Assembly (NCBI RefSeq): GCF_044324875.1
Contig: NZ_CP172185.1
Source of the DNA: Escherichia coli
Lineage (GTDB): Bacteria > Pseudomonadota > Gammaproteobacteria > Enterobacterales > Enterobacteriaceae
DNA: 64,000 nucleotides
Strand: one strand, 5' to 3'
Shown here piece after piece: positions 44,075 through 47,644 of this stretch (position 1 is the stretch's first letter; each line of letters opens with the position of its first letter). The translations under genes were made by a program, and so were the position numbers. The notes beneath the pieces were generated by a model. That model was given only the letters and a program-made list of their open reading frames with translations, was not told the DNA's origin and did not search any database.

Positions 44075-44200
44075 TGCGCTCGTTCACCCCAGTCACATAG
44101 TTATCTATGCTCCTGGGGCTTCACTCACTTGCCGCGTGATTCGGCCTTTTGGCCTCACCCCTCCGGGGCCAGCGCAAGCGCTGTTCAAAACGCAATGCGT
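44075..44200. repeat. ERIC/IRU repeat element
   Basis: CGCTCGTTCACCCCAGTCAC...ATGCTCCTGGGGCTTCAC match both ERIC primer-site cores (reverse complement of AAGTAAGTGACTGGGGTGAGCG, and ATGTAAGCTCCTGGGGATTCAC); imperfect palindrome in the iscX-pepB spacer. Confidence 0.7.
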
Positions 44201-44282
44201 TTTGTCCTGCAACGCGAATCATTTAGCGGAAAAATCCTGGGGCTGCCAACTGGCGGCCCTTTTACAAAGAAGGATAACTAAA

Positions 44283-45708: not shown

Positions 45709-46485
45709 ATGTCCGAAACAAAAAATGAACTTGAAGACCTGCTGGAAAAAGCAGCAACCGAACCGGCGCACCGCCCGGCCTTTTTCCGTACTCTACTGGA
45801 ATCCACCGTCTGGGTGCCGGGTACGGCGGCGCAGGGCGAGGCTGTGGTTGAAGATAGCGCGCTTGATTTACAGCACTGGGAAAAAGAAGACGGCACCAGC
45901 GTCATTCCTTTTTTTACCTCGTTAGAAGCACTTCAACAGGCGGTTGAAGACGAACAGGCATTTGTCGTAATGCCCGTTCGCACATTGTTTGAGATGACCC
46001 TTGGCGAAACGCTCTTCCTTAATGCCAAACTGCCAACCGGTAAAGAATTTATGCCGCGTGAAATCAGTTTGTTGATTGGTGAAGAAGGAAATCCGCTGAG
46101 CAGCCAGGAAGTACTGGAGGGCGGTGAATCGCTGATATTATCGGAAGTCGCAGAGCCACCAGCACAAATGATTGATTCTCTCACCACCTTATTTAAAACT
46201 ATTAAGCCGGTGAAGCGTGCTTTTATTTGTTCAATTAAAGAGAACGAAGAGTCACAGCCTAATTTACTTATTGGCATTGAAGCCGATGGTGATATCGAAG
46301 AAATTATTCAGGCGGCGGGAAGTGTAGCGACCGATACATTACCTGGCGATGAACCCATCGATATTTGTCAGGTGAAAAAAGGGGAAAAAGGAATTAGCCA
46401 CTTTATTACCGAACATATTGCGCCATTCTATGAACGTCGCTGGGGTGGTTTTTTGCGTGACTTTAAACAGCATCGGATAATCTAA
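45709..46485 (+). CDS. sseB: enhanced serine sensitivity protein SseB
   Basis: 258-aa ORF MSETKNELEDLLEKAATEPAHRPAFF...; synteny between pepB and sseA. Confidence 0.85.
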   Translation: MSETKNELEDLLEKAATEPAHRPAFFRTLLESTVWVPGTAAQGEAVVEDSALDLQHWEKEDGTSVIPFFTSLEALQQAVEDEQAFVVMPVRTLFEMTLGETLFLNAKLPTGKEFMPREISLLIGEEGNPLSSQEVLEGGESLILSEVAEPPAQMIDSLTTLFKTIKPVKRAFICSIKENEESQPNLLIGIEADGDIEEIIQAAGSVATDTLPGDEPIDICQVKKGEKGISHFITEHIAPFYERRWGGFLRDFKQHRII

Positions 46486-46802
46486 AATATGCCGCCCCAA
46501 AGGGCGGCATTCGGGCTTACTTGCTGCTCTGAAGTTTGTTAACCACCAGTAAATTGTTGCCGGAGAGACTCCGGTTATTATTTACCTCGGTTAACAGCGC
46601 ACCAGAAACAATAAGTACGATACAAAAGCACCGTATCTTCATTGTGCGGTCCATGCGAAGACCGCATCACGACAGCACCACTGGCGATATTGCCGCGATA
46701 GCAAGCGCTGAGACGCGCTTGCTCTAACGGTCGCGGAACATCCTTTCCTTAAGCCAGCGCCCGCTTGCGAGACGGCGGAAAGGGCCGCAGTGGATAATAC
46801 AC
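46486..46802 (-). ncRNA. ryfA: RyfA-like RNA copy 1 (putative small-protein toxin mRNA, TimP/RyfA type); 5' end approximate
   Basis: Minus-strand unit between a promoter-like TTGTCA-16-TATTGT (about 46837-46810) and terminator hairpin ATGCCGCCCTTTGGGGCGGCAT plus U-tract (46510-46486); about 310 nt; leader has SD-sequestering CCTTTCC/GGAAAGG stem. Confidence 0.6.
46517..46654 (-). CDS. hypothetical 45-aa small protein with hydrophobic N-terminal segment (candidate type I toxin)
   Basis: ORF MDRTMKIRCFCIVLIVSGALLTEVNNNRSLSGNNLLVVNKLQSSK verified codon by codon; identical in copy 2 except the last residues; no strong Shine-Dalgarno, so start codon uncertain. Confidence 0.35.
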   Translation of the reverse strand: MDRTMKIRCFCIVLIVSGALLTEVNNNRSLSGNNLLVVNKLQSSK

Positions 46803-46865
46803 TAACAGAACAATAATAACTCTCTTTTGCTTGACAAAAAGAGGGTTACTGGCGAGTATTGTCTC

Positions 46866-46962
46866 CGCTGAGACGCGCTTGCATTACTACGGTAATACAA
46901 CCTGCTGGAAAGGCCGCGAACCGGACCAGCAACAAAAAACCGCCTGATTTTGGCGGTTTTTT
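46866..46962 (+). ncRNA. putative sRNA 1, divergent from RyfA-like copy 1 (candidate antitoxin RNA, TimR-like)
   Basis: TTGACA (46831-46836) -17 bp- GAGTAT promoter; about 97 nt to intrinsic terminator AAAAAACCGCC-tgatttt-GGCGGTTTTTT (46935-46962); 5' 17 nt identical to the plus strand at 46706-46722. Confidence 0.5.
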
Positions 46963-47079
46963 GTTGTTTAAAGAAAGTGAATTTACATGTTCAAGTAATA
47001 TCTTTTATTGGTTAGTATTTTTAATATTAAGCGAAAATTGTTTATATTTGTCTGAATTCGGACTAATAAGCTAGGTTAT

Positions 47080-47163
47080 TTTATTACCGAACATATTGCG
47101 CCATTCTATGAACGTCGCTGGGGTGGTTTTTTGCGTGACTTTAAACAGAATGGGATAATTTAA
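47080..47163 (+). pseudogene. duplicated 3' fragment of sseB (about 27 C-terminal codons plus stop), non-functional remnant at the repeat junction
   Basis: TTTATTACCGAACATATTGCGCCATTCTATGAACGTCGCTGGGGTGGTTTTTTGCGTGACTTTAAACAG repeated from 46402-46470, followed by a diverged tail and TAA at 47161-47163. Confidence 0.8.
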
Positions 47164-47480
47164 AACATGCCGCCCCAAAGGGCGGCATTCGGGCTTACCT
47201 GCTGTTCTGAAGGTTGTTAACCACCAGTAAATTGTTGCCGGAGAGACTCCGGTTATTATTTACCTCGGTTAACAGCGCACCAGAAACAATAAGTACGATA
47301 CAAAAGCACCGTATCTTCATTGTGCGGTCCATGCGAAGACCGCATCACGACAGCACCACTGGCGATATTGCCGCGATAGCAAGCGCTGTGAAACACCTGC
47401 ATTTACGGCCATGGAACATCCTTTCCTTAAGCCAGCGCCCGTTTGCGAGACGGCGGAAAGGGCCGGTGTCGATAATACGC
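47164..47480 (-). ncRNA. ryfA: RyfA-like RNA copy 2; 5' end approximate
   Basis: Same architecture as copy 1, shifted by 678 bp; terminator hairpin at 47167-47188; leader diverged from copy 1. Confidence 0.6.
47195..47332 (-). CDS. hypothetical 45-aa small protein, paralogue of the 46517-46654 ORF
   Basis: Same ORF as copy 1 with three C-terminal substitutions (K to N, S to N, K to R); frame and length preserved. Confidence 0.35.
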   Translation of the reverse strand: MDRTMKIRCFCIVLIVSGALLTEVNNNRSLSGNNLLVVNNLQNSR

Positions 47481-47543
47481 TAAATAAACAATGATTACTG
47501 TCTTTCGCTTGACAAAAAGAGAGTTACTGGCGAGTATTGCTTT

Positions 47544-47644
47544 GCTGTGAAGCACCTGCGTTGCTCATGCAACACAAGCCAACCTGCTGGAAAGGCCGCG
47601 AACCAGACCAGCAATAAAAAACCGCCAAATTCGGCGGTTTTTTA
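47544..47644 (+). ncRNA. putative sRNA 2, divergent from RyfA-like copy 2 (candidate cognate antitoxin RNA)
   Basis: TTGACA (47509-47514) -17 bp- GAGTAT promoter; terminator AAAAAACCGCC-aaattc-GGCGGTTTTTT (47616-47645) also serves convergent sseA; 5' region matches the plus strand at 47384-47403 with G-U wobbles. Confidence 0.5.

Follow-up and report, generated by a model that had tools for sequence, protein, structure and literature searches.

Probably separate divergent promoters for toxin and antitoxin in a duplicated timP–TimR locus of Escherichia coli

Segment 46810-46862 of the window (the whole 64,000-nucleotide stretch of Escherichia coli contig NZ_CP172185.1 that was analysed) forms the core of a divergent control region, roughly 80 bp long, in a timP/ryfA–TimR/RyfB type I toxin-antitoxin module. 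We consider it likely that this module has separate back-to-back promoters, with the toxin start at a TATTAT element and no -35 hexamer in common. On the plus strand, a sigma-70 promoter (TTGACA, 17-bp spacer, GAGTAT) would start the antitoxin sRNA at about 46865, and the first 17-18 nt of the sRNA would pair with the timP 5′UTR and thereby block translation, a mechanism carried over to this locus from Salmonella. On the minus strand, the toxin mRNA would start from G 46786 by means of a TATTAT -10 hexamer and a weak -35 region at 46822-46817. Control of the toxin would be mainly post-transcriptional. The initial annotation of the segment had proposed divergent back-to-back promoters for a toxin mRNA and an antisense-type sRNA, and this was borne out, the two starts being 79-80 bp apart. 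Its further proposal, that the two promoters overlap in one palindromic -35 element, did not hold.

The duplicated locus

Two copies of the ryfA-timP/sRNA unit lie between sseB and sseA as a tandem duplication with a period of 678 bp, and the duplicated unit takes in the 3′ end of sseB. The Rfam model RF00126 (ryfA) gives two full-length matches on the minus strand, at 46484-46788 for copy 1 (313.6 bits) and at 47162-47466 for copy 2 (319.2 bits), against a gathering score of 80; an IS128-like stretch (Rfam) is located between the two ryfA RNAs. The timP mRNAs are assigned to 46484-46786 (RyfA1, with +1 placed by homology to the Salmonella GGCCC start) and 47162-47464 (RyfA2), both on the minus strand. 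Each contains a timP coding sequence for a 41-residue toxic inner-membrane protein, at 46517-46642 in copy 1 and 47320-47195 in copy 2, also on the minus strand. These match NCBIfam NF040796 toxic_TimP (“small toxic inner membrane protein TimP”) with 83.9 and 84.2 bits respectively, for a cutoff of 45. The segment is matched in 5,425 of 5,426 complete E. coli genomes, and timP is annotated twice (PGAP) in the best-matching ones (98.8% identity). The locus, both transcripts and both 5′ ends are already known: the locus was described earlier in Salmonella as timP/TimR (PMC7667032) and in Shigella dysenteriae as the siblings ryfA1/ryfB1 and ryfA2/ryfB2 (PMC5333039). TimP toxicity and its translational repression by the sRNA were demonstrated experimentally in Salmonella only (PMC7667032).

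Traces of rearrangement are found in and around the locus. The sseB 3′ fragment is repeated at 47080-47160, downstream of copy 1, where it marks the duplication boundary; the annotation of the closest genome lists it as a pseudogene. The K-12 locus (NC_000913.3 2653356-2654158) derives from the two-copy locus by deletion or recombination. In it, ryfA combines a copy-2-type target hairpin with a copy-1-type promoter and an adjoining RyfB1-type sRNA, and TimR lies 400 bp away, beside an orphan timP promoter that has just 15 nt or so of ryfA after it. The Rfam IS128 consensus opens with TTTAGCGTATTATCGACACCGGCCCTTTCCGCCG, which is this orphan K-12 timP promoter and 5′ end, and finishes at the two-way terminator that also serves the RyfB1-type sRNA; the IS128 match in the window (46920-47130, minus strand) has a non-homologous 5′ part made of the sseB fragment and the ryfA2 3′ end. 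In Escherichia marmotae (locus L123, about 1058-1205), a GCAGGTGCTTCACAGC/GCTTGC junction joins the antitoxin seed straight to the target hairpin of ryfA. The fusion corresponds to a deletion through a shared 16-nt repeat. With both promoters gone, along with the 5′ end of the sRNA and some 70 nt at the 5′ end of ryfA, timP is left there without a promoter of its own. Elsewhere in the window, a minus-strand match to Rfam AaHKsRNA22 (RF02902) at 44140-44212 scores 45.3 bits, just above the gathering score of 39.8, and the same element is present in E. whittamii (locus L067, 913-985).

Promoters and starts of the two RNAs

The copy-1 antitoxin promoter was read correctly by the initial annotation: TTGACA is at 46831-46836 and GAGTAT at 46854-46859 on the plus strand, with a spacer of exactly 17 bp. 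The sRNA downstream is by homology a RyfB1-type TimR paralogue of about 100 nt (46865-46964, plus strand) with an intrinsic terminator at its end. In copy 2, the same hexamers at 47509-47514 and 47532-47537, again 17 bp apart, precede the RyfB2-type sRNA TimR (47544-47643, plus strand), homologous to the 100-nt timR of K-12 (b4811). The Salmonella TimR 5′ end is CTACGGTGTGCC..., and the 40 nt before its +1, ATCATATTGACATTTGCTCCCTTAAAAGGGAGTATTAATC, comprise TTGACA-17-GAGTAT, then 5 nt and the +1 (Andresen 2020, Table S2; PMC7667032); the -35 also agrees with the Salmonella oligonucleotide EHO-1349. The K-12 RefSeq timR 5′ end lies 7 nt past the homologous GAGTAT. From the homology to these Salmonella and K-12 starts, we infer that the copy-1 sRNA has its +1 at about 46865.

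Comparison of the locus over 15 lineages covered Escherichia, Salmonella, Citrobacter, Superficieibacter, Yersinia, Rahnella, Erwinia and three metagenome relatives. The motif CTTGAC is invariant in 15 of 15, with nAnnAT at a fixed distance of exactly 17 bp in every lineage, and the sequence of the spacer is unrelated between lineages. The sRNA promoter thus combines the two hexamers, the 17-bp spacing, a 5′ end 6-8 nt past the -10 and conservation in relatives. Relatives were searched for in several ways. A scan of a genome collection with the ryfA hairpin pattern GCGGTCNNNGCANNGACCGCAC was unspecific and returned GC-rich hairpins from many phyla; it yielded at least 15 usable Enterobacterales loci, with no Salmonella among the matches listed. 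Three of 15 hairpin-scan loci (L070, L079 and L115) were left out for their rearranged ryfA 5′ ends, and an S. flexneri locus (L127) full of indels was discarded. Of two metagenome scans, the one that used the conserved ryfA 5′ end recovered 46 loci, mostly from E. coli, with three other lineages besides; the one that used a Salmonella/Citrobacter-type promoter pattern gave no matches. The TimP protein search retrieved Escherichia and Shigella only. The ROSE supplement of E. coli start sites has no entry for the locus.

As in timPR loci, the sRNA gene is divergent from and adjacent to timP, and the 5′ end of the sRNA is complementary to the timP 5′UTR. Residues 46866-46882 of the copy-1 sRNA are perfectly complementary over 17 nt to 46706-46722 on the minus strand, a target site at +65 to +81 of the timP1 5′UTR. 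Complementarity of the copy-1 site with the non-cognate copy does not exceed 8 nt. In copy 2, the sRNA and the 5′UTR are complementary over 16 nt with one G-U pair by our own reading. Cognate sRNA/timP duplexes exceed non-cognate ones in strength by about 10-15 kcal/mol, each sRNA favouring its own copy. The predicted fold of the copy-1 sRNA leaves the 5′ seed mostly open, with a weak three-pair stem only, and contains the terminator; the homologous terminator of K-12 carries a very strong Term-seq 3′ end, at 2653679(-). An Rfam scan of the sRNAs returned no matching family, only sub-threshold noise.

The toxin mRNA starts elsewhere than initially annotated. In Salmonella, timP RNA was cloned and transcribed from GGCCCTTTCCGCCGTC with TATTAT located 7 nt upstream, the 40 nt upstream of the +1 finish with ...GAGGTATTATCTTTCCC (Andresen 2020, Table S2; PMC7667032), and the oligonucleotide EHO-1348 reads ...GGTATTATCTTTCCC and then GGCCC (PMC7667032). 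The G of GGCCC homologous to the Salmonella +1 is 46786 in copy 1 and 47464 in copy 2. The Salmonella timP ORF extends from +145 to +261 of the transcript (PMC7667032), and the ATGs at 46642 and 47320 are both exactly at +145 when counted from these two positions. Both K-12 RefSeq ryfA and the Rfam model begin at GCGGCCC, 2 nt before that G, and a 5′-triphosphate-enriched start site of K-12 matches the annotated ryfA start (Kim 2012, Table S2). Across 46810-46862, K-12 and copy 1 differ by a single base. On the joint evidence of the Salmonella +1, K-12 annotation, Rfam model and K-12 5′-triphosphate site, the timP/RyfA 5′ end is taken to correspond to 46786-46788. It would be driven by the TATTAT hexamer at 46799-46794 (minus strand, 7 nt before GGCCC), which is the conserved GTATTATC element. 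A RyfA start served by this element, downstream of the promoter initially favoured, was the very outcome that the initial annotation had named as speaking against its assignment. Direct reading and the lineage comparison place the copy-2 counterpart TATTAT at 47472-47477 on the minus strand.

A -10-like hexamer is present 6-7 nt before GGCC or GGGCC in 14 of the 15 lineages (TAnnAT, or TACACT in two Yersinia). The exception is the metagenome contig PPYF01188455.1, where TTTTAT replaces TATTAT and the key A at position 2 is lost. The antitoxin promoter of this contig is intact (TTGACT-17-GAATAT), and its toxin gene may be silenced.

The timP promoter has a poor -35, with 2/6 matches: placed by its 17-bp spacing from TATTAT, the putative and weak -35 region is GAGTTA at 46822-46817 on the minus strand. 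It falls inside a block, GrGwrAyTATT, common to Escherichia, Salmonella and Citrobacter-like sequences. An extended -10 (TGn) was considered for timP and rejected, a TG directly abutting TATTAT in copy 1 and a CG in copy 2. The discriminator between TATTAT and the +1 is GC-rich, CCACTGC here and CTTTCCC in Salmonella, as expected for a stringently controlled promoter; RyfA is reportedly repressed more than 4-fold by ppGpp in late stationary phase Salmonella (PMC3963941).

The candidate shared -35 hexamer

All the hexamers quoted in the initial annotation are present, including the putative palindrome CTTGACAA at 46830-46837 and 47508-47515. On the minus strand of copy 1, TTGTCA (46837-46832) is followed after a 16-bp spacer by TATTGT (46815-46810). 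This pair had been read as the RyfA promoter, its -35 overlapping that of the sRNA. It would place the start at about 46802-46804, which is 16-18 nt before the mapped 5′ end, so that timP does not start 6-9 nt past TATTGT. The candidate (46810-46837, minus strand) is not the mapped timP promoter; it occupies -51 to -24 of the real one, and TATTGT, at -29 to -24, lies inside the spacer of the real promoter. The arrangement was also said to be kept in copy 2, which holds for CTTGACAA and the plus-strand hexamers; the minus-strand “-10” of copy 2 is CATTGT, with 3/6 matches.

The opposite-strand TTGTCA is explained by the sRNA -35 itself, since TTGACA is nearly self-complementary and here has an A next to it. 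The “palindrome” is the 7-mer TTGnCAA, which arises whenever TTGACA is followed by A. This is the case at 5 of the 12 TTGACA sites in the whole window, and in only 6 of the 15 lineages. A scan for consensus promoters found 5 promoter-like sites in 3.5 kb, TTGTCA-TATTGT among them, for 4.0 +/- 1.8 in shuffled sequences. It does not pick up the plus-strand sRNA promoter, because GAGTAT matches only 3/6. In the AT-rich spacer, about 13% of positions offer a 4/6 -10-like hexamer at 16-18 bp. By count of consensus matches, the rejected pair (5/6 and 4/6, 16-bp spacer) scores level with the validated sRNA promoter (6/6 and 3/6). The minus-strand hexamer pair does not rise above chance. The hexamer with a -10 at 16-18 bp was not found conserved in relatives, and judging from these lineages a shared -35 is not a conserved property of the timP–TimR system.

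The pair could still act as a minor upstream timP promoter (P2) in the K-12-type Escherichia lineage, both present copies included, although we regard this as unlikely. Such a promoter would give an mRNA about 17 nt longer, and polymerase bound at the sRNA promoter would exclude P2 through the overlapping -35. The hexamers and their spacing are promoter-like (9/12 matches with a 16-bp spacer), and the geometry is created jointly in this lineage by a gap 3 bp shorter (32 vs 35 bp) and by TATTGT in place of TATTCA. However, such hexamer pairs occur at chance frequency in the region, copy 2 has CATTGT (only 3/6), and the geometry is missing in Salmonella, Citrobacter and the other Escherichia lineage, which have ATGTCA or AAGTCA, 19 bp and TATTCA. 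The start-site data point in both directions: the K-12 data of Cho et al., obtained without 5′-triphosphate enrichment, put the ryfA 5′ end “upstream of the sRNA” (cited via Kim 2012, Table S2), whereas the 5′-triphosphate-enriched K-12 start of the same table is the annotated one. Northern blots report a single size of timP transcript, a 17-nt difference being below their resolution. The mirror-likeness of the arms of the region, which is above chance, also favours P2, and it seems improbable to us that the 3-bp shorter spacer and a newly evolved dyad symmetry created, in the K-12-type lineage, a secondary timP promoter overlapping the antitoxin -35. If they did, a fraction of toxin transcription would be possible only with the antitoxin promoter unoccupied, adding a transcriptional layer to the coupling of toxin and antitoxin. 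Our limited literature search found no description of transcriptional coupling of that kind for type I systems.

The dyad symmetry itself is centred on the sRNA -35, which is flanked by a 12-nt inverted repeat, TAACTCTCTTTT at 46817-46828 and AAAAGAGGGTTA at 46837-46848. The repeat is 11/12 here (92% complementary) and 12/12 in K-12, and just 8 of 500 shuffled sequences attain its score. Mirror similarity between the arms of the region extends out to TATTGT (alignment score 5.0, vs -6.2 +/- 3.1 in shuffles), and the entire 46810-46862 can be viewed as a gapped palindrome. The repeat could be an operator or the trace of an inverted duplication. As an operator, it would be bound by a dimeric regulator lying over the sRNA -35 and spacer and over the timP -35 region, and controlling both promoters. 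Its near-perfection, its rarity in shuffles and the fact that it spans exactly the two -35 regions favour this view, which we nevertheless hold to be very improbable. The repeat decays to 9/12 in both copy 2 and E. whittamii (manual count) without compensating changes, it has no counterpart in the other Escherichia lineage, in Citrobacter, in Salmonella or in more distant genera, and it matches no known regulator motif. Moreover, timP mRNA is reportedly expressed under all conditions tested in Salmonella (PMC7667032). The symmetry is confined to the K-12-type Escherichia lineage. Separate promoters, the reading we prefer, leave its above-chance occurrence there unaccounted for.

Promoter interference and comparison with known systems

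The initial annotation had suggested that RNA polymerase occupancy at one promoter would exclude the other and couple toxin and antitoxin transcription inversely. This is unsupported for promoters that are separate, with -35 regions 8 bp apart (46822-46817 for timP and 46831-46836 for the sRNA). The starts are separated by 79-80 bp (80 bp in copy 2) and the two -10 hexamers (46794-46799 and 46854-46859) by 54 bp; relative to the opposite promoter, each -35 occupies about -43 to -50. Since the real timP -35 region is 8 bp away and the starts 79-80 bp apart, this geometry does not imply obligatory exclusion of polymerase. Some competition between the upstream contacts of polymerase at one promoter and the -35 contacts at the other is conceivable. 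Separate divergent promoters were reported to be unaffected by direct polymerase clashes, and in true bidirectional promoters, which share a -10, competition requires high promoter activity (PMC12825309). The Salmonella deletions begin at +1 according to the recombineering oligonucleotides (PMC7667032, Table S2) and, read that way, the timP and timR deletions retain both promoters; when either gene was deleted, the other RNA was not substantially changed (PMC7667032). In the RyfA/TimR literature searched for UPEC, APEC, Shigella and Salmonella, we found no description of the native promoters and no test of interference.

The distance from the sRNA -35 to the timP -10 varies from 19 to 36 bp over the 15 lineages. 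At 32 bp, the present locus falls between the 35-36 bp of the other Escherichia lineage, Citrobacter and Superficieibacter and the shorter distances of Yersinia and Erwinia (25-26 bp) and of Rahnella (19 bp). In the Rahnella loci (L100, L068 and L030), no more than 19 bp separate the timP -10, TATGAT, from TTGTCA, and the distance between the starts is about 65 bp. Judged on this spacing, the two -35 regions of Rahnella must physically overlap, which would affect the principal timP promoter.

Beyond correct annotation, the significance of these results is slight: the toxin promoter would be the conserved TATTAT rather than hexamers mirroring the antitoxin promoter. With the promoters separate, the published evidence continues to assign TimP regulation chiefly to the RNA level. 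Matching of hexamers, used by itself, overlooked the real sRNA -10 (GAGTAT, 3/6) yet accepted a chance pair.

The closest known system is timP–TimR of Salmonella Typhimurium (ryfA/STnc2070; PMC7667032, PMC11228461). Both loci have the ryfA RNA fold, the TimP ORF at +145 and the sseA/sseB neighbourhood. In both, the divergent sRNA pairs by its 5′ end with the 5′UTR more than 60 nt upstream of the ribosome-binding site, the sRNA has TTGACA-17-GAGTAT and timP has TATTAT 7 nt before GGCCC. Unlike Salmonella, the present locus comprises two tandem copies with differing seed and target sequences, and TimP is 41 aa long rather than 38 aa. Salmonella has ATTGACAT, hence no opposite-strand TTGTCA, and is also devoid of the 12-bp inverted repeat. 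The ryfA1/ryfB1-ryfA2/ryfB2 locus of Shigella dysenteriae is likewise a tandem ryfA pair, with a divergent sRNA of about 100 nt before each ryfA, complementary to its own copy (Fris et al. 2017, PMC5333039). That study treated ryfA as non-coding and left promoters and starts unmapped (PMC5333039), and the likeness drawn here is by description.

Among the other type I modules of E. coli, tisB-istR-1, shoB-ohsC, zorO-orzO and dinQ-agrB (listed in PMC7667032) are also divergent, adjacent and non-overlapping, and their sRNAs also pair inside the toxin 5′UTR. Unlike theirs, timP mRNA is translatable without processing (PMC11228461). Bidirectional promoters (PMC12825309) have in common with the present region divergent transcription from one short AT-rich sequence, and the notion that a polymerase bound in one direction can preclude binding in the other. 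However, bidirectional promoters share a symmetric -10 with a -35 on either side and have close starts, whereas here a single symmetric -10 was not found and the two -10 hexamers are 54 bp apart.
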